A stretch of DNA of 64,000 bases from an uncultured Gammaproteobacteria bacterium. GTDB lineage: Bacteria > Patescibacteriota > Microgenomatia > UBA8517. How positions within the stretch are numbered: the stretch's first letter is position 1; every line of letters starts with the position of its first letter. The stretch spans positions 223,683 to 287,682 of the forward strand of contig CAZRJH010000001.1 of NCBI GenBank assembly GCA_964600575.1. The letters are read 5' to 3'. This document shows, piece after piece, positions 780-22,143 of the stretch. A model generated the notes under the pieces. The model made no database searches. It worked only from the letters and a program-made list of their open reading frames with translations, and was not told the origin of the DNA. The position numbers and the translations under genes are program-made.

Positions 780-1524
780 AGAAAACGACAATGTCGGTCA
801 TGGCGAATTCGAAGTAAAAGCTTTTGCCGTTGATTACGAGGTTATTGCTGATACTTTTATAGATACAAAGGGAGCTGCCGCTTCACTCGTAAAGATGCTG
901 CCAAAAAACTCAACTGTTTTTGAGTTGGGTTTAGGAACGGGTTATTTTGCACAATTTCTTTACAACGAAGGTTTAAATGTTTCCGGAATCGAACCTTCCA
1001 AAACAATGGCTTCCGAACTAAAACAGAGACATCCTTATATAACAATTGCCGCAGAGTTAGCTTTAGAGAATTACGATTTTGATACAAAGCACGAAGCCAT
1101 AGTCTCTCATAGTTCGATTTTCCTCTTTACGGCACCTCACGAGGATCCGGCCTTATTTACGGACCAAGATCTGATATTTCAATCCTTCCTGGTGGATGAG
1201 GATAAAAACATAGAAAATCTTCAAAAAGTCCTATCAGCCTTAACCGATAAAGGAAAACTTTTTATAAATATACAAACAAACGCAAAACCGTCGACGGTTA
1301 TTAACGAACATTTAACATTTAAAATGCTTGAATGTGATTACAATTTTTCTTCAAAAAGAGTTTCCAAACTGTTTGCTTTGGTAGCAGATGGAGAAACAAA
1401 GCTCATGGGTCCGGATGTCTCTTACGTTTTACGATGGCATGATTTTTCCGGTTTAATAAACGGCTTTGGTTATAAAACAGAGGTCTCAGAAGATAAAAAG
1501 TGGGTAATAATATCTCGTATTTGA
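772..1524 (+). CDS. Class I SAM-dependent methyltransferase
   Basis: Glycine-rich SAM motif ELGLGTGYFAQFL followed by an acidic residue pattern; about 250 aa; start overlaps the upstream stop (operon coupling). Confidence 0.6.
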   Translation: MSKENDNVGHGEFEVKAFAVDYEVIADTFIDTKGAAASLVKMLPKNSTVFELGLGTGYFAQFLYNEGLNVSGIEPSKTMASELKQRHPYITIAAELALENYDFDTKHEAIVSHSSIFLFTAPHEDPALFTDQDLIFQSFLVDEDKNIENLQKVLSALTDKGKLFINIQTNAKPSTVINEHLTFKMLECDYNFSSKRVSKLFALVADGETKLMGPDVSYVLRWHDFSGLINGFGYKTEVSEDKKWVIISRI

Positions 1525-1560
1525 CTTTCTGCCAAAAGCTAAATATACTCTTTTAAGTTA

Positions 1561-1780
1561 AAAGCACTTGAGGTGAGGGAATGGACTCACCGAGCTGACC
1601 TGTGAATCATCGAAAGAAAGTAGCAGGCTCCGGAGGACACCGTAACAAGTCAAGACTAATGTCGCTAAGGCGGAGTTAGTTACAAAGGTCCGACGAGTGA
1701 TTGTCGGACAAACAAAAGGTGGCACAGCGAGAGATCTCGCCCTTATTACCGAATTTTCGGTTGTGGAGGCGAGTTTTTTT
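1561..1780 (+). promoter_or_regulatory. T-box-like riboswitch leader: hairpin with UGG in the loop, conserved core, antiterminator with UGGCACA bulge, intrinsic terminator
   Basis: Hairpin GGUGAG-GGAAUGGA-CUCACC (1571-1592) places UGG followed by A in the loop, like an ultrashort stem I. A core containing ACCGUAA and GUCGCUAAGGCGGAG is shared with the second leader at about 9079-9118. A stem GUCCGAC/GUCGGAC lies at 1688-1709. The T-box-like sequence is AAAAGGUGGCACAGCGAG (1714-1731). It can form the antiterminator AAGG / UGGCACA bulge / GCGAG-AGAU-CUCGC / CCUU. The competing terminator CUCGCC...GGCGAG + U7 lies at 1735-1780. Confidence 0.55.
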
Positions 1781-1791
1781 GTATCTAAATA

Positions 1792-3281
1792 TGCATAAAG
1801 AAAGAATAAACGGTCAGGCAAAAGATGTTGCAGTCATAAGACTCAAAGGATTTCCTTATCAACAGGAAATGTTTGGTGTGAGGATAGACTGTTCCGAAAT
1901 CTTGGAAGATCTTACTGCTAATTCAGCCTACGAAGAACGGCTATCCAGAAACATAGCACTTAACGAAGAAAACCTTAAACCTCTATTTGAAAGCGGCTAC
2001 TATGGAATAGACGCAAAGATTAAAAAAGCGGAACCGTTAACTTACCCCGAGGCTTTTAGTTTAATGACTTTTGTGTCTATGGGCGTAAACAAGTTGGTAT
2101 ACAACCAGCTCCAGCCACGCATTTATTCGGGAATGCCAGAAGAAACAAGGCAAATGCTGAGTACTCCCGAAAGAATCTTCGATCAATCGATAGCACTTTT
2201 GTCGGCAATGTCTGCTAAAGAGGCTTTTGTGGGGCTTACCCCGGAGGAGATTGCAGGACTTACGGCAGCAGCTCTCGAAATAGATACGATTGTAAGAATT
2301 CCGGCTTCAAAAAGTGTTTTAGGGATAGGCGGAATGGGCGGAGATAGAGGCTATAAACGAAACGGCGACAACTCGAAACTGTTTAGTTTGTCAACGATGG
2401 GAGCAATCGTTGCTTCCAATTTTGGATATGTCCATAAACACCACTCGTATCCAAACACATCTAAAGTTGCAGGACAAAGTGCAATAGAAGCATTCGGTGC
2501 CATGTCTAATCAATCCACCCCTGAACAGTTTGTTGTTTTGCAGGAAAGTACTCAGTTGATAATGACTAGTTGCCATACCACAAGATTAATCCACACACTT
2601 TCACATAGACTAAAGGGGGAAACAATTAACCACATAGTTGGACCTCTGGCTATACCTGTAGACAAAAACACCGAAGTAAACGCATTTATAGGAGCCAACG
2701 ATAATGTACACCCTGAAACAATTATCGATTCATTAATTGTGATGCAAAAACACGGAGTTCAACGTTACGGCAACAGCGTATCTTTTTGCGGACTCAATAC
2801 AAACACTATTCCTGCAGAAATATTAAATCCTGACACTTACTACAAAAGTAAAGCAGCTAAATCACTTGTTGCAATAGACGAGGTTGCACCCCCGCCTTAC
2901 AAAACTCTGGCAGCTTTTATGGTTAGCGGAATAAATTTGGGAACTTTCGTAATCGAATCCTCTGATTTTATGGAGGATTCGGAACTCGCCGAAGTTCATT
3001 TGGAAAAATTACTTATTCCAAACACAACCGAAGCAATTATGAAAACCAACCAGGAGGCGTTAACTGGGGCCGATAAATCAAAATCCTATTACCTTGCTAT
3101 GACAGCTGCTTTGGGACTGTTTACTAAAGAATATGCTTCTAAACCCGGAGCTTTTGACCGAAAGTCACGAAAAGTTAACAGAGGATATTTAAGACATGCT
3201 TTTAAAAGATCTTTGGAGGCAATTTACTCCGGACAGGCATACAATAAACTTGTAGATTACGCCGAAGCCTCCAGAAAATAA
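1792..3281 (+). CDS. Glycosyl-transferase family 3 (TrpD / nucleoside-phosphorylase fold) protein with long N-terminal extension
   Basis: LGIGGMGGDRGYKRNGDNSKLFSLSTMGAIVASNFGYVHKHH matches the TrpD GTGGDG..NISTA...KHGN signature. The protein is about 497 aa from Met 1792, against about 340 for canonical TrpD. The ORF-track start at 1701 would read through the terminator, so the downstream ATG is preferred. Confidence 0.55.
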
Positions 3282-3289
3282 TTAAATAT

Positions 3290-3985
3290 ATGATATCTGT
3301 TTACTCTACATTTGCCAGTGATACGTTGCTTAAAGACGGATCAAAAACCGTGCTTAACGGAGGACCGTTATATTTTATCGAGGAAGTTTTTAAAACTAGC
3401 GGAGTTTCCTATGAGTCACATTATGGCAAAAGTGCGTCGGTTGAGATAAAAATTAGCCGAGGAACGGAAATCGGGAAAATAACTAAAAAACCGGAGTATT
3501 TAGAAATCAACCCCCTCGACTCGGCCGATATTGTCTTGATATCTACAATCTTTGACGAGTGGAAATTGGACAACGCCGCGAGTTTAAAAGGAAAAATCAT
3601 TCTTGACTTACAAGGTTATGTAAGAAATCCTGATATTTTTGGCGGTAAAAAAAATCTTGAACTCCAAGACCAAGTATTAAAAAATATATTTTGCCTAAAA
3701 GCCACCAAACAGGAACTCGGCTACTTAGGTGAGTCACAAGTCGAAGATCAAAAAAAGCGGGTATTAATAGTCACCGACGGAGGAAATGAAATAGTGGTCT
3801 TTGAATCAGGCAAAAAAAGTTATTTTAAAGTAAACAAAACAGAGAATTTTAAAGACACAATAGGCGCAGGAGACACTTTTTTGGCAAATGTGGCACTAGG
3901 GCTAGACAGCAAAAGCGAAGTTGATGAGACAATTAGAGTTGCAATAGACAAAACTTTGGATTTTTTAAAGTCAAAAACCGAATAA
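3290..3985 (+). CDS. PfkB/ribokinase-family carbohydrate kinase (short form)
   Basis: C-terminal DTIGAGDTFLA anion-hole/ATP motif typical of the ribokinase/PfkB family; 231 aa is short for the family. Confidence 0.5.
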   Translation: MISVYSTFASDTLLKDGSKTVLNGGPLYFIEEVFKTSGVSYESHYGKSASVEIKISRGTEIGKITKKPEYLEINPLDSADIVLISTIFDEWKLDNAASLKGKIILDLQGYVRNPDIFGGKKNLELQDQVLKNIFCLKATKQELGYLGESQVEDQKKRVLIVTDGGNEIVVFESGKKSYFKVNKTENFKDTIGAGDTFLANVALGLDSKSEVDETIRVAIDKTLDFLKSKTE

Positions 3986-3989
3986 ACAA

Positions 3990-4811
3990 ATGAAAGAGCA
4001 ATCAAAATTTTTAAAACCGATAGACAATATAGTGCTCAGCGATTTAGACAATACTCTGGTAGAAGGAGGCATCCATTTTAACCCGGAGTTGGTTGTCCCT
4101 GCAGTGACCAAAGCAAAACAAAACGGATTTGTTGTAGGACTTAGCTCCGATACTCCCTACGAAGCTCTAGAGGTATGGAGAGATAGATTTTCCATGAACG
4201 GACCGATAATTGCAGAGAAGGGCCTTGTTGTCGGCTTAGAAAGCGGGCTCATATACAACAAATCAGATTCCGAAGCGTTTTTTAAAACCAGAAACTTAAT
4301 TGCCGAACAGTTTAAGATGCTTGGATTTGTAGTTTGGGAGGGAAATCCGGTTGAGGCATTAAGGTCTAATTTGCTAATCGGAGAACCGAATGACAGAGTT
4401 CTTTTAGTGAATAGCTTAAGAAAATGTAGCCTAGGTTTGTTTTTTAGGAAAAACGACCGAAGCGGAAGAATGACAATAGATGACCCTACAACTAATTTTG
4501 CAGTGGAAAATTCAAGGCAGTTTTATCCCGATTTTGATCTGGACGAAGATTTAAACACAAAACACGGTCTAGTCTTGGTTGCCAGAAAAGGTACAAATAA
4601 AAGAAGCGGAACAAAAATTTTGATGGATAATCTAAAATTGGAAGAAATAGGTATGGTTGGAGACTCAGACGGGGATTTTTTGGGCAAAGATATCGCAAAA
4701 CATTACGCAGTTGAAAACGCTTCGGATTCTTTTAAGTCTAAAACTGTTTATGTATCGGACAAACCACTTGCCTCCGGAGTTGCCGATATATTAGAAAAAA
4801 TTATTGAGTAA
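3990..4811 (+). CDS. HAD-superfamily (Cof/IIB-type) phosphatase
   Basis: Motif I LSDLDNTLV near the N-terminus and motif IV GDSDGDF near the C-terminus. Confidence 0.6.
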   Translation: MKEQSKFLKPIDNIVLSDLDNTLVEGGIHFNPELVVPAVTKAKQNGFVVGLSSDTPYEALEVWRDRFSMNGPIIAEKGLVVGLESGLIYNKSDSEAFFKTRNLIAEQFKMLGFVVWEGNPVEALRSNLLIGEPNDRVLLVNSLRKCSLGLFFRKNDRSGRMTIDDPTTNFAVENSRQFYPDFDLDEDLNTKHGLVLVARKGTNKRSGTKILMDNLKLEEIGMVGDSDGDFLGKDIAKHYAVENASDSFKSKTVYVSDKPLASGVADILEKIIE

Positions 4812-4826
4812 AATAAAACTAATTTT

Positions 4827-5663
4827 ATGAACAAATTAAATGAAATCTTGGGAACAGCTAAGCCTCTTTTGGGAATGATTCATTTTCCGCCCCTGATAGG
4901 GCACAAGGACTTTCCTGGATTTGACTATATTGCTACAAAAATGCTTTCCGAAGCAAAGATTCTTGAAGACTCGGGATATGATGCCATTATTATCGAAAAT
5001 AACTACGACACTCCTCATACGGAAAAAATAACACCTATGTCTGCTGCCATGTTCGGGGCTCTTGCTAAAATACTCGAAAACAAAATAAATATTCCGTTTG
5101 GCGTTGATATTCTTTGGAACGACTTTGAAACTTCGCTTTCTGTGTGTGCGTCTTCTAAAGCTAAATTTTTTAGAGTGCCAGCATTTGTAGACAGTGTTAA
5201 AACAGATTATGGAGTAATGGAGGCGAGAGCGGACGCCATTTCCGAACTCAGAAAAAGGTTAAACCTAGAAAACATAGGCTTATTTGCGGATATTCAGGTT
5301 AAACATTCGGAGATGCTCGACAAAAATAAAAGTTTATCGACATCCGTAAAAGAAGCAAAAGAAAAAAGCGCCGATGCCGTAATTGTAACGGGAAAGTGGA
5401 CAGGAGATGCCCCCAAAATCGAAGACTTAAAAGAAGTTAAAACTGCAGTCGGGGATTTCCCTATTTTAATAGGCAGCGGTTCGACCATAGAAAACTTAAA
5501 ATTGTTATCAATGTACGCAGACGGAGTAATTGTAGGAACCTTTATTAAAGACGGAGAAAATCAGGATAAAGAAAAAGAAATAAACCTAAAACCTTTTGAG
5601 GCAACGATATCAAAGGAAAAAGCTTCCGACTTCGCAAAAGAGTTTAAATCACTATTTAAATAG
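4827..5663 (+). CDS. BtpA/SgcQ-family TIM-barrel protein
   Basis: N-terminal LLGMIHFPPLIGH and overall length/pattern resemble the BtpA family (PF03437). Confidence 0.45.
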   Translation: MNKLNEILGTAKPLLGMIHFPPLIGHKDFPGFDYIATKMLSEAKILEDSGYDAIIIENNYDTPHTEKITPMSAAMFGALAKILENKINIPFGVDILWNDFETSLSVCASSKAKFFRVPAFVDSVKTDYGVMEARADAISELRKRLNLENIGLFADIQVKHSEMLDKNKSLSTSVKEAKEKSADAVIVTGKWTGDAPKIEDLKEVKTAVGDFPILIGSGSTIENLKLLSMYADGVIVGTFIKDGENQDKEKEINLKPFEATISKEKASDFAKEFKSLFK

Positions 5664-5680: not shown

Positions 5681-5709
5681 TTGACGTAAACGTTCATAAA
5701 GCCTAAAAT
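5681..5709 (+). promoter_or_regulatory. Sigma70-like promoter for tyrS (TTGACG-17-TAAAAT), likely a leaderless transcript
   Basis: TTGACG at 5681-5686, a 17-nt spacer, TAAAAT at 5704-5709; the ATG at 5716 sits where the TSS is expected and no SD is present. Confidence 0.45.
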
Positions 5710-5715
5710 CAGCAT

Positions 5716-6864
5716 ATGCAAATTAACGAAGTTCTAGAAAGGGGTGTCTCCCAAATTCTCCCTGACAAAAAGGGATTAGAGGACCTGTTGTCCAAAAAGA
5801 AAATAAAACTTTATCAGGGTTTTGATCCTTCGGCCCCCTCACTTCATTTGGGAAACTTTGTGGGACTAATGAAGCTTAGACAGTTCCAAAAACTAGGACA
5901 TGAGGTTATCTTTTTGGTGGGGGACTTTACGGGAATGATAGGCGACCCGACAGATAAACTTGCCACAAGAAAGAAATTAACAAGGCAAGAGGTTGCAGAA
6001 AACGCAAAAGCTTGGAGATCCCAAGCATCAAAAGTTCTTGATTTCGAAGGTGATAACCCCGCTAAGATTATTTTTAATTCCGAATGGAGCGACAAAATAA
6101 CTTTTAAAGATCTTATAGAAATAACTTCCAATCTTACAGTTCAACAAATGATTGAAAGGGATATGTTCCAGGAACGCCTTAAACAAAAAGCCCCGATTTA
6201 TTTGCATGAATTTTTATATCCCGTTGCCCAAGGGTACGATTCTGTTGCAATGGATGTTGATCTAGAAATCGGCGGAAACGACCAGCTTTTTAATATGATG
6301 GCTGGTAGAACTTTAATGAAAGCCATTAAAGGCAAAGAAAAATATGTTCTTACAACCAAGCTGCTCGTCGACAAAGAAGGTAAAAAAGTAGGTAAAACCA
6401 CGGGCAATGCGCTTTTTATGGATTCCACTCCTTCTGATTTTTACGCAGGAATATTATCTTTCCCCGATGAAGTAATACTTTTAGGATACGAGCTTTTAAC
6501 GGAGCTATCTGTAAGCGGTTTAGAGGAGAAAGTCAAAGAAAATCCTATGAAGGAAAAGAAAAATCTAGCTTTCGAAGTTGTCAGATTTTTATGGGGAGAG
6601 TCAAAAGCACAAGAAGCACAGGAAAAATTCGAAAAAACTTTCCAAGAGAGATCTCCCGAGTTTAATATCAAAGTAGATTCGGGTAGTCCGCTTGTTCAAA
6701 CAATTATTCCTTTCACATCCCTTGCGAGTGCCAGCGATGCTAAAAGACTACTTAAACAAAATGCCGTAGAAGTTAACGGTAAAAAAACTACTGACGGGTC
6801 GTATGTAGTGCAATCCGGTGACGAAATAAAAGTAGGCAGCAGGACGTTTTTAAAGGTCAAATGA
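5716..6864 (+). CDS. tyrS: Tyrosyl-tRNA synthetase
   Basis: Class I aaRS: DPSAPSLHLGN (HIGH variant), KVGKT (KMSKS variant) and a C-terminal S4-like domain (LLKQNAVEVNGKK). Confidence 0.8.
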   Translation: MQINEVLERGVSQILPDKKGLEDLLSKKKIKLYQGFDPSAPSLHLGNFVGLMKLRQFQKLGHEVIFLVGDFTGMIGDPTDKLATRKKLTRQEVAENAKAWRSQASKVLDFEGDNPAKIIFNSEWSDKITFKDLIEITSNLTVQQMIERDMFQERLKQKAPIYLHEFLYPVAQGYDSVAMDVDLEIGGNDQLFNMMAGRTLMKAIKGKEKYVLTTKLLVDKEGKKVGKTTGNALFMDSTPSDFYAGILSFPDEVILLGYELLTELSVSGLEEKVKENPMKEKKNLAFEVVRFLWGESKAQEAQEKFEKTFQERSPEFNIKVDSGSPLVQTIIPFTSLASASDAKRLLKQNAVEVNGKKTTDGSYVVQSGDEIKVGSRTFLKVK

Positions 6865-8972: not shown

Positions 8973-9019
8973 TTGACAAAGTATTTTATAAGTATTATTA
9001 TAGGTTTACATTTTAATAA

Positions 9020-9275
9020 ATGCGTTACTAGCAGGTTCGCGCCCTGCAAGCAGCAGTCAAAAATGACTGACGGAAGCTAACCGTAAAAACAAGCTAGAGT
9101 TTGTCGCTAAGCGGAGAACTCAAATAAAGAGGATTACCTCGAATTTGATTCCGGCCACAAAGCCGGTTTTTTTTGATTTAGGGGTAGTCGAAAAAGGGTG
9201 GTACAGTCCTACCAAGGGCCCCTTTGGGTACCGATTTTATTTTAATCGGCATCCGAAGGGGCTTTTTTTGTGCCC
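9020..9275 (+). promoter_or_regulatory. Second T-box-like riboswitch leader (UGGUACA bulge), paralogous to the 1561-1780 element
   Basis: ACCGUAA (9079-9085) and GUCGCUAAGCGGAG (9104-9117) are shared with the first leader. Hairpin CCGGCC..GGCCGG + U8 lies at 9153-9177. The T-box-like sequence is AAAAAGGGUGGUACAGUCC (9190-9208). It can form the antiterminator AAGGG / UGGUACA / GUCCU-ACCA-AGGGC / CCCUU. A long terminator hairpin (9218-9262) + U7 follows, and a strong SD (GGAGG) directly precedes the ATG at 9296. Confidence 0.55.
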
Positions 9276-9295: not shown

Positions 9296-9826
9296 ATGAA
9301 TAAAGAAAACATTTATAAAACGGAAGGTGACGGAAGCAATTATCAGGTTTCTTTGATTGCGTCCGTTATATCTAAGCTAACAAAAGAATCAGGAACGATG
9401 CTCCCCAAAGAGCCGGGTGTAATTAAAGAGCTCTTGGAGCAAAGTGTTACCGTTGTCGCTTGGAGTGACGGTAGAGACCCGAAACCGATAGGTTTTGCAG
9501 CTGTTACTTTTAGCTGGGGTGGGTGGAAAGAGATTGGAGGTCTTGTTGTTGACAAAGAATATAGACAGCAAGGGCTTGGGCATTCTTTAGTGGCAGAGAT
9601 TATCAAAGCTGCACAGGAAAACTACCCAGATTCCAACTTATTTGCACTCTGTAACGAGAAGAGTCTAAAACTTTTTTTGGATAACGGTGCAAAAATAATA
9701 ACGGAACCCGACATGTTGCCCGCAGAAGTTTTTGGTGAGTGTATAAGCTGTCCAATGTTTAGCGATACAAAAGCCAAAGGAAAACTTTGTTGCGACATTC
9801 CTGTAATAATTAAGTCGGTAGTCTAA
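9296..9826 (+). CDS. GNAT-family N-acetyltransferase
   Basis: GNAT motif A region GGLVVDKEYRQQGLGHSLV. Start chosen at MNKEN (9296), preceded by GAGGAGGTGA; the longer ORF-track start at 9224 would span the terminator. Confidence 0.55.
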   Translation: MNKENIYKTEGDGSNYQVSLIASVISKLTKESGTMLPKEPGVIKELLEQSVTVVAWSDGRDPKPIGFAAVTFSWGGWKEIGGLVVDKEYRQQGLGHSLVAEIIKAAQENYPDSNLFALCNEKSLKLFLDNGAKIITEPDMLPAEVFGECISCPMFSDTKAKGKLCCDIPVIIKSVV

Positions 9827-9833
9827 AAAACCA

Positions 9834-10934
9834 ATGGAAATACTCAAAAAGTTAATCCAGATAAATTCAGTATCCGGGCAGGAGCAGGAGATTCAGATTT
9901 ATATCAAAAATTTCCTGCATTCGCTCGGATTAATACCCATTGTTTATGGTGGTAATATTTTTGTGCAAATAAAAGGGCAGGATGGTGACAAATGCTTAAT
10001 TTTTAACGCGCACACAGATACCGTTGCCTCGGGTGAGACTGTGTCTTGGCTTAAGCATCCAACAAATGCATATGAGCATGACGGGAAAATATACGGCCTA
10101 GGCTCTTCGGACAACAAAGCTTCTGTTGCCGCACTTTTGAATTTATGCCGGTTTTTTAGCAAAGAAAAACCTGAGTGTGATTTAATATTTACTTTTACAA
10201 TTAAAGAAGAGGTCGATGGTTCCGGAACAAAGAATTTGGTTGCAAAGTTTGGTGGTTCCTGGCTTAAAAACCACAAGATTATTAGTGCAATAGTAATGGA
10301 ACCCACGGCTTCCGAATATTTTTGCACAGGTCATACTGGAAACATGTTTTTAAAAGTGACAACTAGGGGTAAATCCGGTCACGGGAGTGTGCCGATATCC
10401 ACAAATGAACACGCAGTTTTAAAAATGTACAAAGTTATAAAAAAACTTTTAAAACTTGGCGAAAAATGGGGCTTAGAATATGTGGATTTAAAAATAGGAA
10501 AACCTACTATAGCTGTGGCAACCTCGGTTAAGGCGGGGGACCTTACCTCACCCAACAAGTTTCCTGACAAGTGTGAGGCAACTTTTGATGTTAGAACTAC
10601 TCCCAAAATGCACAAAATGTCTTTTAAAATGCTATCGGAATCAATCAAAGGTCTGGGAGATTTGGAGTATGTCACCGAACCTGTGGAGGGAGCTTCAACC
10701 GACATAAATTCAAAAATCGTTCAGCTTTTTTTGAATCAGAAAATCAAAATTAAAAAATTCAAAGGATCATCGGACTTGCCGTTTTTTACAAATATAGGCA
10801 TTCCGGGAATTATTTTTGGTCCGGGAGAACCACAAACAATGCACAAACCAAACGAATATTGCAAAATCAAAAACATTAAAAAGGCGGAATCCATTTTGAA
10901 GCAGATAATTGTCCGTTTCGGGGGGTATAATTAG
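9834..10934 (+). CDS. M20-family metallopeptidase (ArgE/DapE-like deacylase)
   Basis: NAHTDTV and GSSDNKASVAA metal-binding motifs of acetylornithine deacetylase / succinyl-DAP desuccinylase family. Confidence 0.65.
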   Translation: MEILKKLIQINSVSGQEQEIQIYIKNFLHSLGLIPIVYGGNIFVQIKGQDGDKCLIFNAHTDTVASGETVSWLKHPTNAYEHDGKIYGLGSSDNKASVAALLNLCRFFSKEKPECDLIFTFTIKEEVDGSGTKNLVAKFGGSWLKNHKIISAIVMEPTASEYFCTGHTGNMFLKVTTRGKSGHGSVPISTNEHAVLKMYKVIKKLLKLGEKWGLEYVDLKIGKPTIAVATSVKAGDLTSPNKFPDKCEATFDVRTTPKMHKMSFKMLSESIKGLGDLEYVTEPVEGASTDINSKIVQLFLNQKIKIKKFKGSSDLPFFTNIGIPGIIFGPGEPQTMHKPNEYCKIKNIKKAESILKQIIVRFGGYN

Positions 10935-10936
10935 CC

Positions 10937-11560
10937 ATGAAGATTTTCTTAGTAAGGCACGGCGAAACTACGGGCAATGTACAAGATTTCTATCAGACCG
11001 CAGAAACGCCGTTAACCAAAAAGGGGATTGCGCAGGCAAATTTAGTGGCAAAAAGGTTTGTTGGAGTACCAATTGATCTTATTTATTCAAGTTCCCATAT
11101 TCGCGCTATGAATACTGCTCAAATCATTTCTGATGCAATCGGCGTAAGAGTGGAAATGTCTCAAGACCTTATAGAAATCACCAGGCCTAAAGAGGTTAGA
11201 GGGAGAGCAGGTAACGACCCAGTGGCAGAAAAAATAATGTCTCAGGTTAAAAATAACTTTGGCGATAAGTCTTGGAAATATTCGGACGAAGAAAATTTTT
11301 TCGACTTAAACGATAGGGCTGACCGTATTCTTGGCCATCTAGAAAAATTTCATCAAAAGGAAGCAGTAATCTGCGTGTCCCATGGGACTTTTATAAGGTT
11401 TATTGTTTCCAAAGCCATTTTTGGCCAAGGACTTACGCCGGAAATTTTTACTAAAATGAGGTACGGCCTCGGGTCAAATAACACGGGTGTAACCATATTG
11501 GAGAAAAACAAATACGGAGAACTAAAGCTTGAAGCCTGGAACGACACGAGCCATCTTTAA
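10937..11560 (+). CDS. Histidine phosphatase (phosphoglycerate-mutase-like) family protein
   Basis: N-terminal RHGETTGN catalytic RHG motif. Confidence 0.65.
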   Translation: MKIFLVRHGETTGNVQDFYQTAETPLTKKGIAQANLVAKRFVGVPIDLIYSSSHIRAMNTAQIISDAIGVRVEMSQDLIEITRPKEVRGRAGNDPVAEKIMSQVKNNFGDKSWKYSDEENFFDLNDRADRILGHLEKFHQKEAVICVSHGTFIRFIVSKAIFGQGLTPEIFTKMRYGLGSNNTGVTILEKNKYGELKLEAWNDTSHL

Positions 11561-21354: not shown

Positions 21355-22143
21355 GTGAATGCAAAAATGAAGGTTAAATTTAAAACTGATTACGCAAAAC
21401 GTTTTGCAGAAATTCTACTCGCACTTACAGAAAAAGAAAGTAAGATTAGATACGCCAGAACATTTTTTGGTAAAGGCTGGGTATTGCTTTTTCCTGTTAT
21501 TCAAATGCTAGTAATGGGTTTTATTTTTTCTTTCTTTATTAAGTTACCAAATTATTTTCAATTCTTGTTTGGAGGGCTTTGTATTTGGAATTTTTTTTCA
21601 ATTTCCATAACACGATCTTGCGTTAGTTTGGTCTCAGAGAGAATGTTGGTTCAAAAATCAAAGTTTCCAGTTGAAACGGTACCACTTTCGGTTGTTCTTT
21701 CAAATCTGGAGAACCTCATAATATCCGCAGTGTTGTTCATACTCTATTTGTTAATTACTAACAGCCTCGAGAGTGTCGATATCGCACTTCTATCTTACTC
21801 TCTAATAATGCTTATACTGCTAACGTCTGGTATTTCACTTCTGGTTTCGGTAATAAACGTATTTAGAAGAGACGTAAATTTCATAATACAATCCTTAATT
21901 CCTTTATTGTTTTATGCCACACCTATTTTATATAGACTTGACGACATTCCCGAAAAATTTCGCTTCGTTTTAATGCTAAATCCTATGAGCAGTATTGTAG
22001 TGGGATTCAGGTCTGCTTTCATGAGTCAGGAAACAACTCCATTTAATATGGTTGTTATTAACATTTTTACAGTGACGTTTATTTTTATATTGGGAATCAT
22101 GGTTTTCAAAATCAACAAAAACAAAATACCAGACTATTTATAA
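21355..22143 (+). CDS. ABC-2 type polysaccharide/teichoic-acid exporter permease (Wzm/TagG-like)
   Basis: Six TM topology; ABC-2 family N-terminal pattern (RYARTFFGKGWVLLFPVIQML); followed by the ATPase. Confidence 0.7.
   Translation: MNAKMKVKFKTDYAKRFAEILLALTEKESKIRYARTFFGKGWVLLFPVIQMLVMGFIFSFFIKLPNYFQFLFGGLCIWNFFSISITRSCVSLVSERMLVQKSKFPVETVPLSVVLSNLENLIISAVLFILYLLITNSLESVDIALLSYSLIMLILLTSGISLLVSVINVFRRDVNFIIQSLIPLLFYATPILYRLDDIPEKFRFVLMLNPMSSIVVGFRSAFMSQETTPFNMVVINIFTVTFIFILGIMVFKINKNKIPDYL

Follow-up and report, generated by a model that had tools for sequence, protein, structure and literature searches.

A probable tryptophan-responsive T-box of reduced type upstream of a TrpD-like gene in a candidate phyla radiation contig

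We analyzed a 64-kb window of contig CAZRJH010000001.1 (positions 223,683 to 287,682 of the forward strand; all coordinates below are counted from the first letter of the window) and describe the leader at 1558-1780 on the forward strand, which precedes the gene of a TrpD-like protein. A preliminary description, made from the letters alone, had read this leader as a T-box riboswitch with a tryptophan-like specifier; the whole element, including its terminator, starts slightly upstream of the position proposed there. The leader and its first controlled gene comprise the following features, where nt and bp stand for nucleotides and base pairs.

1521-1549, forward strand: promoter-like site TTGACT-17-TATACT, 10 of 12 consensus matches, a pattern match only
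1564-1595, forward strand: ultrashort stem I, with base pairs G1564-C1595 and C1565-G1594
1570-1571 with 1592-1593, forward strand: tandem GA resembling a kink-turn (K-turn), aligned to the K-turn positions of the Rfam T-box family RF00230
1572-1577 with 1586-1591, forward strand: stem I hairpin of 6 bp, GGUGAG, loop GGAAUGGA, CUCACC
1578-1585, forward strand: terminal loop of stem I, 8 nt, GGAAUGGA
1582-1585, forward strand: specifier UGG (Trp codon) and purine A1585, on the 3' side of the stem I terminal loop
1599-1627, forward strand: stem II, CCUG 1599-1602 with CAGG 1624-1627, apical UC-GAAA-GA, from the Rfam alignment
1603-1606 (UGAA) and 1619-1623 (AGUAG), forward strand: S-turn-type sequences of stem II, from the Rfam alignment
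1631-1651, forward strand: stem IIA/B pseudoknot, IIA CGG 1631-1633 with CCG 1640-1642, IIB GAC 1636-1638 with GUC 1649-1651
1640-1645, forward strand: F-box CCGUAA
1654-1681, forward strand: extra hairpin between the IIA/B pseudoknot and stem III, outer helix GACUAA/UUAGUU, variable apical loop
1688-1694 with 1703-1709, forward strand: stem III, GUCCGAC with GUCGGAC, from the Rfam alignment
1684-1688 (AAAGG) and 1710-1711 (AA), forward strand: purine flanks of stem III, the whole region being 1684-1711
1714-1731, forward strand: T-box sequence AAAAGGUGGCACAGCGAG
1716-1744, forward strand: antiterminator, A1 AAGG 1716-1719 with CCUU 1741-1744, A2 GCGAG 1727-1731 with CUCGC 1736-1740, loop AGAU
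1720-1726, forward strand: antiterminator bulge of 7 nt, UGGCACA, whose UGGC would pair with the 3'-GCCA of uncharged tRNA-Trp
1731-1780, forward strand: intrinsic terminator, a long interrupted hairpin, CUCGCC 1736-1741 with GGCGAG 1768-1773, then U7 at 1774-1780
1791-3281, forward strand: TrpD-like protein, 496 aa, the first controlled gene (PF00591, 28.9 bits)

In an Rfam scan of region 1480-1850 (371 nt), RF00230 matched positions 1558-1747 (+) with 51.2 bits and an E-value of 1.7e-10, and the alignment spans the full model (positions 1-219). Scaled by us to 64 kb, the E-value is ∼3e-8. None of 200 dinucleotide shuffles folds as well as the leader itself (z = -4.2). Every defining T-box module is present in it except the distal stem I platform. 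The K-turn can be recognized at the sequence level as GC/ACUU/GA ... GA/GC (1564-1571 and 1592-1595), the S-turn of stem II and the IIA/B pseudoknot with its F-box are both in place, and the flanks of stem III fit the RRRxG-stem III-AA motif (PMC7583486). The distal part of stem I comprises 7 nt versus 73 consensus nt in the RF00230 alignment, and the elbow platform formed by a distal stem I with an AG bulge and a distal loop (the interdigitated T-loop motif) is absent. By its predicted structure and function the leader is a T-box, filed here as a variant of that class; the function is proposed from sequence and structure by analogy with studied T-boxes. The T-box sequence, helix A1, the bulge, helix A2 and the terminator with its shared strand and U7 are all found where the preliminary description had placed them, as is the upstream hairpin with UGG followed by A in its terminal loop, which pairs at 1572-1591. 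The K-turn, stem II, pseudoknot, stem III, extra hairpin and a further T-box at 9016 were not on its list.

The TrpD-like protein has more than 180 homologues, almost all of them in the candidate phyla radiation (CPR)/Patescibacteria (among the named hosts are Collier-, Gottesman-, Blackburn-, Woese- and Roizmanbacteria and Saccharibacteria), in agreement with the CPR-like host suspected at the outset. Of the 67 loci that we sampled, 24 belong to species-representative genomes and 43 are metagenomic, and a simple motif search revealed GGUGGNA together with a short UGG-bearing hairpin upstream of the homologue in many of them. Twelve close leaders were aligned by MAFFT without regard to structure, and the structure was then imposed from the Rfam alignment (alignment A3). 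A covariance model built from A3 (R1) was searched against the window and the 67 loci, giving 39 credible matches, and a model-fitted alignment was produced (A4). About 30 related leaders lie upstream of TrpD-like homologues in CPR/Patescibacteria contigs, and their downstream proteins are 32-64% identical to that of the window.

In A4 the paired fraction of cells is 93.5%, and 38 of the 42 pairs have changed on both sides; none of 500 shuffles was as good, and slid controls reached 30-44%. In A3, 93.2% of cells are paired, with compensatory changes in 27 of 47 pairs. All seven pairs of stem III and all four basal pairs of stem II are compensatory in both alignments, as are six of six pairs of the stem I hairpin in A4 (four of six in A3). 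The IIA helix is invariant across the aligned leaders and IIB shows compensatory changes in four of five pairs (A3); in the window sequence IIB consists of only 3 bp, shifted by one column, and in the subtype B leaders the IIB pairing was not definable by eye. Helix A1 is invariant or changed one-sidedly, and the pairs of A2 are compensatory in A4. The covariation supports all predicted helices, including the IIA/B pseudoknot. Distal stem I is reduced in most relatives too, with a somewhat longer stem I in L024, and the K-turn has AA and not GA on its 3' side in a few relatives. Several of the metagenome-assembled genome records sampled (L001-L003, L007, L010, L018, L020) are titled 'uncultured Pseudomonadales' or 'Gammaproteobacteria', but both their gene content and the relatives of the homologue look patescibacterial; these titles are probably placeholders or wrong taxonomy.

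A second T-box with a short stem I was identified in the same window.

9016-9275, forward strand: second short-stem-I T-box (RF00230, 34.1 bits, E-value 3.9e-6; R1, 44.2 bits at 9016-9224)
8973-9001, forward strand: strong promoter-like site of the second T-box, a pattern match

It has the same reduced design, with stem I GCAGG-UUCGCGC-CCUGC, an antiterminator bulge UGGU and a terminator that ends at ∼9270. As judged from the sequence, its specifier is ambiguous and would be GCG (Ala) or CGC (Arg). A third R1 match at 21659-21817 (-), with 12.5 bits, lies inside an open reading frame (ORF) and was dismissed as noise; searching the window using R1 with filters off gave no further T-box.

The segment CUCGCC (1736-1741) is common to the antiterminator and the terminator, as noted at the outset, and the two structures are mutually exclusive, with folding energies of -20.6 kcal/mol for the terminator and -8.4 kcal/mol for the antiterminator. 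By analogy with known T-boxes this energy gap is the usual asymmetry, and the antiterminator would need tRNA to win. A simple terminator scan missed the terminator of the leader because its stem is long and interrupted. Behind essentially all related leaders there is a hairpin in which the 3' half of the antiterminator is used again, with a U-run after it; therefore, the transcription-termination platform is conserved. Leaders of subtype B have stem III extended into a long helix; its tip forms a GC-rich hairpin with 6-8 U behind it (CCGGC-CACAAA-GCCGG and U8, for instance). A long stem III with a U-run is seen at 9150-9174 of the window and in L008, L010-L012, L018, L022, L023, L033, L043 and L044.

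These features lead us to propose, as very probable and by analogy with studied systems, that the leader is a Trp-responsive T-box transcription attenuator of reduced type, in which antitermination depends on tRNA-Trp. Transcription would probably start just after the promoter-like site at 1521-1549, a few bases 5' of the T-box. The nascent leader would fold its K-turn, the 6-bp stem I displaying UGG-A, stem II with its S-turn, and the IIA/B pseudoknot, which together would clamp the CCA anticodon of tRNA-Trp. If the tRNA is uncharged, its 3'-GCCA would pair with UGGC of the bulge and, together with stem III, stabilize the weak antiterminator, so that RNA polymerase would read through into the TrpD-like, PfkB-like, HAD and BtpA genes. 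With a charged tRNA, or with none, the terminator with U7 would form and transcription would stop at ∼1780.

The same RNA might instead, or in addition, control translation in the manner of the actinobacterial short-stem-I T-boxes, in which case it would hide the ribosome-binding site. A short or ultrashort stem I is so far linked to translational T-boxes, mostly those of actinobacterial ileS, where stem II and IIA/B compensate for it (PMC7583486, PMC11297988), and the start codon ATG 1791 begins only 10 nt past the U-tract. However, the alternative hairpin is followed by U7 in the manner of a classic intrinsic terminator, and the hairpin and U-run are kept in the relatives; neither in nor beside the hairpin is there a Shine-Dalgarno sequence to sequester; and in two related loci (L016 and L044) a tRNA gene comes next, whose product undergoes no translation. 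We consider a translational mode of action very unlikely.

With transcription attenuation as the preferred reading, the choice of tRNA can be examined in the relatives. In each of the ∼30 leaders upstream of a TrpD-like gene, the stem I loop carries UGG and a following purine on its 3' side, within otherwise variable loops (AAUGGG, AAUGGA, GUUGGAA, GAUGGAG, UUUGGAG, GUUGGGG) and above a stem that covaries. Since this UGG+R is invariant before the TrpD-like genes and another loop is found in the second T-box, the triplet tracks the regulated genes, as a specifier would. Among the loci with such a specifier (UGG-A at 1582-1585 in the window), genes occur for tRNA-Trp(CCA), in one relative for tryptophanyl-tRNA synthetase (TrpRS), and for the anthranilate phosphoribosyltransferase (AnPRT)-fold protein. 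ARAGORN placed tRNA-Trp genes, whose CCA anticodon is complementary to UGG, no more than 3 kb from the homologue in seven distinct loci (L001, L004, L016, L023, which was also sampled as L039, L024 and L044). The discriminator base 73 was read by hand from these tRNA-Trp sequences and compared with the bulge of the leader in the same locus, as follows.

L001, tRNA-Trp at 6611: G73, bulge UGGC, pair G-C
L023/L039, tRNA-Trp at 5336 (L023) and 4836 (L039): G73, bulge UGGC, pair G-C
L024, tRNA-Trp at 5133: G73, bulge UGGC, pair G-C
L044, tRNA-Trp at 2352: G73, bulge UGGC, pair G-C
L004, two tandem tRNA-Trp copies at 136 and 250, both alike: G73, bulge UGGU, G-U wobble
L016, tRNA-Trp at 923: A73, bulge UGGU, pair A-U

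The pairing of C at the fourth bulge position with G73, which had been proposed for the window, is thus borne out in relatives. The same split between C and U at this position, with G73, is reported for the Trp T-boxes in TBDB (PMC7778990).

The window loop GGAAUGGA also contains GGA and AUG, so that the T-box might read another tRNA, for Gly or Met, and the loops of subtype B (..UUGGAA) even have an A after GGA. Yet AUG is not conserved, many relatives having UUG instead, and in subtype A GGA or GGG has no unpaired purine next to it. Moreover, neither tRNA-Gly nor elongator tRNA-Met of bacteria is known to carry G73, thus C or U at bulge position 4 fits Trp better, and the context (tRNA-Trp genes, TrpRS and the AnPRT-fold protein) is Trp-specific. 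A Gly or Met specifier therefore appears most improbable, and the Trp specifier named in the preliminary description is retained.

In two of the loci the tRNA-Trp gene stands directly behind the leader, before the protein genes: it starts 3 nt (L016, 622-995) or 7 nt (L044, 2082-2425) past the U-tract of the terminator. The order in L016 is leader, tRNA-Trp, an ORF without assigned function, TrpRS (TIGR00233, 197 bits; cut-off 176.75), TrpD-like gene and BtpA; the tRNA-Trp of this locus combines A73 with G37. As read from the sequence, the riboswitch in loci of the L016/L044 type would control transcription of its own ligand; alternatively, these tRNA genes may be transcribed from a separate promoter inside the leader. 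We know of no T-box described ahead of a tRNA gene, and a search for such an arrangement in a partial literature collection gave nothing apparently relevant among titles and abstracts. The frequent occurrence of tRNA-Trp near the TrpD-like/BtpA pair suggests a functional tie beyond shared regulation.

Several observations weigh against a Trp T-box attenuator at 1558-1780. First, the RF00230 score of 51.2 bits is below the Rfam gathering score of 93, and whole-window Rfam scans (64 kb), run at the gathering score and then at E <= 0.1, return no family. Hence the family search suggested earlier gave a highly significant match that stays under the family cut-off. We attribute the loss in the E <= 0.1 scan to speed filters, since the scaled E-value would pass, and this loss explains why such elements stay unannotated; both T-boxes of the window were detected by short-region scans only and are invisible at standard thresholds. 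The low score is largely due to the deletion of distal stem I and the insertion of a hairpin, and other leaders of this kind are also under the cut-off (L024, 42.7 bits; the second window T-box, 34.1 bits). Second, the discriminator domain, complete with stem III, A1, bulge and A2, deviates from the consensus twice: the bulge is UGGCACA instead of UGGNACC, and the A2 pair beside it is G-C in place of the G-U of the Rfam consensus, a terminal wobble that has been described as a steric sensor (PMC7583486). An imperfect match of the T-box to the family consensus had been noted from the start as a caveat. Third, there is no obvious Shine-Dalgarno sequence ahead of ATG 1791. Fourth, the window contains no tRNA gene anywhere in its 64 kb, so the tRNA-Trp of its own genome is absent from it. 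Fifth, R1 was seeded with the window sequence, and the R1 score of the window is not independent. Finally, the leader has no distal stem I platform, whereas T-boxes acting on transcription are described as generally possessing and requiring a long stem I for docking of the tRNA elbow (PMC7583486, PMC11297988).

Taken at their strongest, the sub-threshold score, the truncated stem I and the failure of the whole-window scans would fit a decayed or chance T-box-like sequence, with the hairpin and U7 simply terminating or attenuating transcription constitutively between the methyltransferase gene and the operon that follows. Such an origin is hard to reconcile with an E-value of 1.7e-10, with the conservation of all modules through compensatory changes over ∼30 leaders whose downstream proteins have diverged that far, and with a second copy of the reduced design, bearing a different specifier, in the same window. 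We regard decay or chance as highly implausible.

The extra hairpin is the feature of the Trp T-box leader that is absent from the Rfam consensus, where it appears as a 27-nt insertion after the F-box. Its outer helix is compensatory in five of five pairs in A4 and four of six in A3. The inner motif UGUCG...CGGAG, comprising U-G, G-A and U-G followed by C-G and G-C, is nearly invariant; both leader subtypes have it, and so does the second window T-box (9096-9123), whatever the specifier. The apical loop varies from 4 to ∼40 nt (equivalent positions in L001-L062). It can be speculated that this hairpin may compensate for the lost distal stem I contact.

The probable operon controlled by the leader (1791-5663) comprises the TrpD-like gene and three further genes, each assigned by a family profile match.

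3290-3985, forward strand: PfkB-like kinase
3990-4811, forward strand: HAD-IIB phosphatase
4827-5663, forward strand: BtpA-family TIM-barrel protein

The preliminary description had called the first gene TrpD-like, and fold comparisons agree with it. By sequence the resemblance is weak: the protein scores 40.7 bits with TIGR01245 (cut-off 199) and matches an AnPRT sequence in the PDB with an E-value of 2e-5. Its AlphaFold (AF2) model has a mean confidence (pLDDT) of 88.8, and the 50 best PDB fold matches are all AnPRT, with a target TM of ∼0.8 and 15-19% identity; an AnPRT fold is thus predicted for it from the model. About a quarter of the listed homologues (P0038, P0040, P0042, P0043, P0045 and others) are ∼700 aa long and combine the TrpD-like part with a HAD phosphatase (PF00702/PF13242). 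These fusions match the separate HAD gene in the window operon and point to a phosphorylated intermediate. BtpA lies directly 3' of the TrpD-like gene in most related loci, and PfkB and HAD are found in only a few. The window gave no TrpB pyridoxal phosphate motif in its six frames. We infer that the controlled set is a module induced by Trp starvation and built around a phosphoribosyltransferase-like enzyme.

The class-I synthetase gene that follows (5716-6864) was considered as TrpRS and rejected, as it encodes tyrosyl-tRNA synthetase (TyrRS; TIGR00234, 336 bits). It has its own promoter-like site at 5681-5709, and hence is possibly outside the unit. The second T-box is followed by three genes.

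ATG at 9297, forward strand: GNAT acetyltransferase, 3' of the second T-box, with GGAGG ahead of the ATG
9834-10934, forward strand: M20 peptidase
10937-11560, forward strand: histidine phosphatase

Upstream of the leader, an S-adenosylmethionine (SAM) methyltransferase gene (772-1524) overlaps the end of ORF 6-779, which itself has an M20 peptidase gene upstream. ORF 6-779 (full-length homologue P0122, 378 aa; L068, 1079-2215) belongs to a very rare family with 3 clusters among 5.8 billion. By eye it had seemed similar to tryptophan or indoleamine 2,3-dioxygenase, which was not confirmed: it has no Pfam, NCBIfam or PDB sequence match, and full-length P0122 gives only a faint match to indoleamine 2,3-dioxygenase (E-value 0.038). 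The family may be Trp-related.

T-box control is usually assigned to Firmicutes and a small number of further phyla, and CPR organisms are thought to lack amino-acid biosynthesis. No paper linking T-boxes or riboswitches with CPR/Patescibacteria was found in a partial literature collection, which is suggestive of novelty and not proof of it. The short form recurs across CPR lineages at scores that pipelines discard, thus T-box regulation there is probably under-counted. We tentatively suggest, at somewhat less than an even chance, that these leaders form an undescribed T-box subclass, common among CPR bacteria, that terminates transcription without an elbow platform, in which the hairpin may replace the lost contact, and which would control a Trp-supply or tRNA-Trp module and sometimes precede its own tRNA-Trp. 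If so, the CPR would harbor a previously unrecognized module for Trp supply or related to tRNA-Trp. The riboswitch would tie the TrpD-like and BtpA pair to tryptophan or tRNA-Trp, which makes its biochemistry testable in presumed auxotrophs and gives CPR biology a regulatory handle on a conserved gene pair of uncharacterized function. For a T-box specialist, the surprises are the short stem I joined to a terminator, the extra hairpin and, in relatives, tRNA-Trp directly behind the terminator. A short stem I, tied to slow translational control, is here coupled to a terminator, which raises the design question of how the tRNA would be caught in time for a decision on transcription if its elbow does not dock, and whether the extra hairpin helps.

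The leader shares with the canonical transcriptional T-boxes (RF00230, for example trp of Firmicutes) the K-turn, a specifier followed by a purine, the S-turn, IIA/B with the F-box, stem III, and an antiterminator with a UGGN bulge and a competing intrinsic terminator. In contrast to them, it lacks distal stem I and, with it, the interdigitated T-loop platform that receives the tRNA elbow, its specifier lies in a terminal rather than an internal loop, and a hairpin is added between IIA/B and stem III. Its hosts are CPR/Patescibacteria, and the genes it would control include no recognizable trp operon, synthetase or transporter.

The likeness to actinobacterial ultrashort-stem-I T-boxes (ileS, Mycobacterium and Nocardia; PDB 6UFG; Sherwood et al. 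2015, cited in PMC7583486), suggested in the preliminary description, holds for stem I and probably not for the mode of control. These elements share with the leader a short stem I without the elbow platform, a reliance on the K-turn, the S-turn of stem II and IIA/B for anticodon binding, and the same discriminator domain. They control translation by Shine-Dalgarno sequestration, mostly in response to tRNA-Ile before ileS, whereas the leader shows no such sequestration and has instead a terminator with U7, UGG, a TrpD-like operon and the extra hairpin.

At the level of the controlled gene, the TrpD-like protein shares its predicted AnPRT fold with TrpD, and the GTGGD and KHGNR..SS..G motifs of TrpD line up by eye with GGMGGDKG and KHHSYPNTSKVAGQSA of the family consensus. 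Unlike TrpD, it is ∼165 residues longer, has only 15-19% identity to it, and its gene is almost always paired with a BtpA-family gene and not with trp genes. As judged from the sequences, the departures from described T-boxes are threefold: an ultrashort stem I combined with a terminator, the extra hairpin, and the predicted control of AnPRT-fold and BtpA genes.

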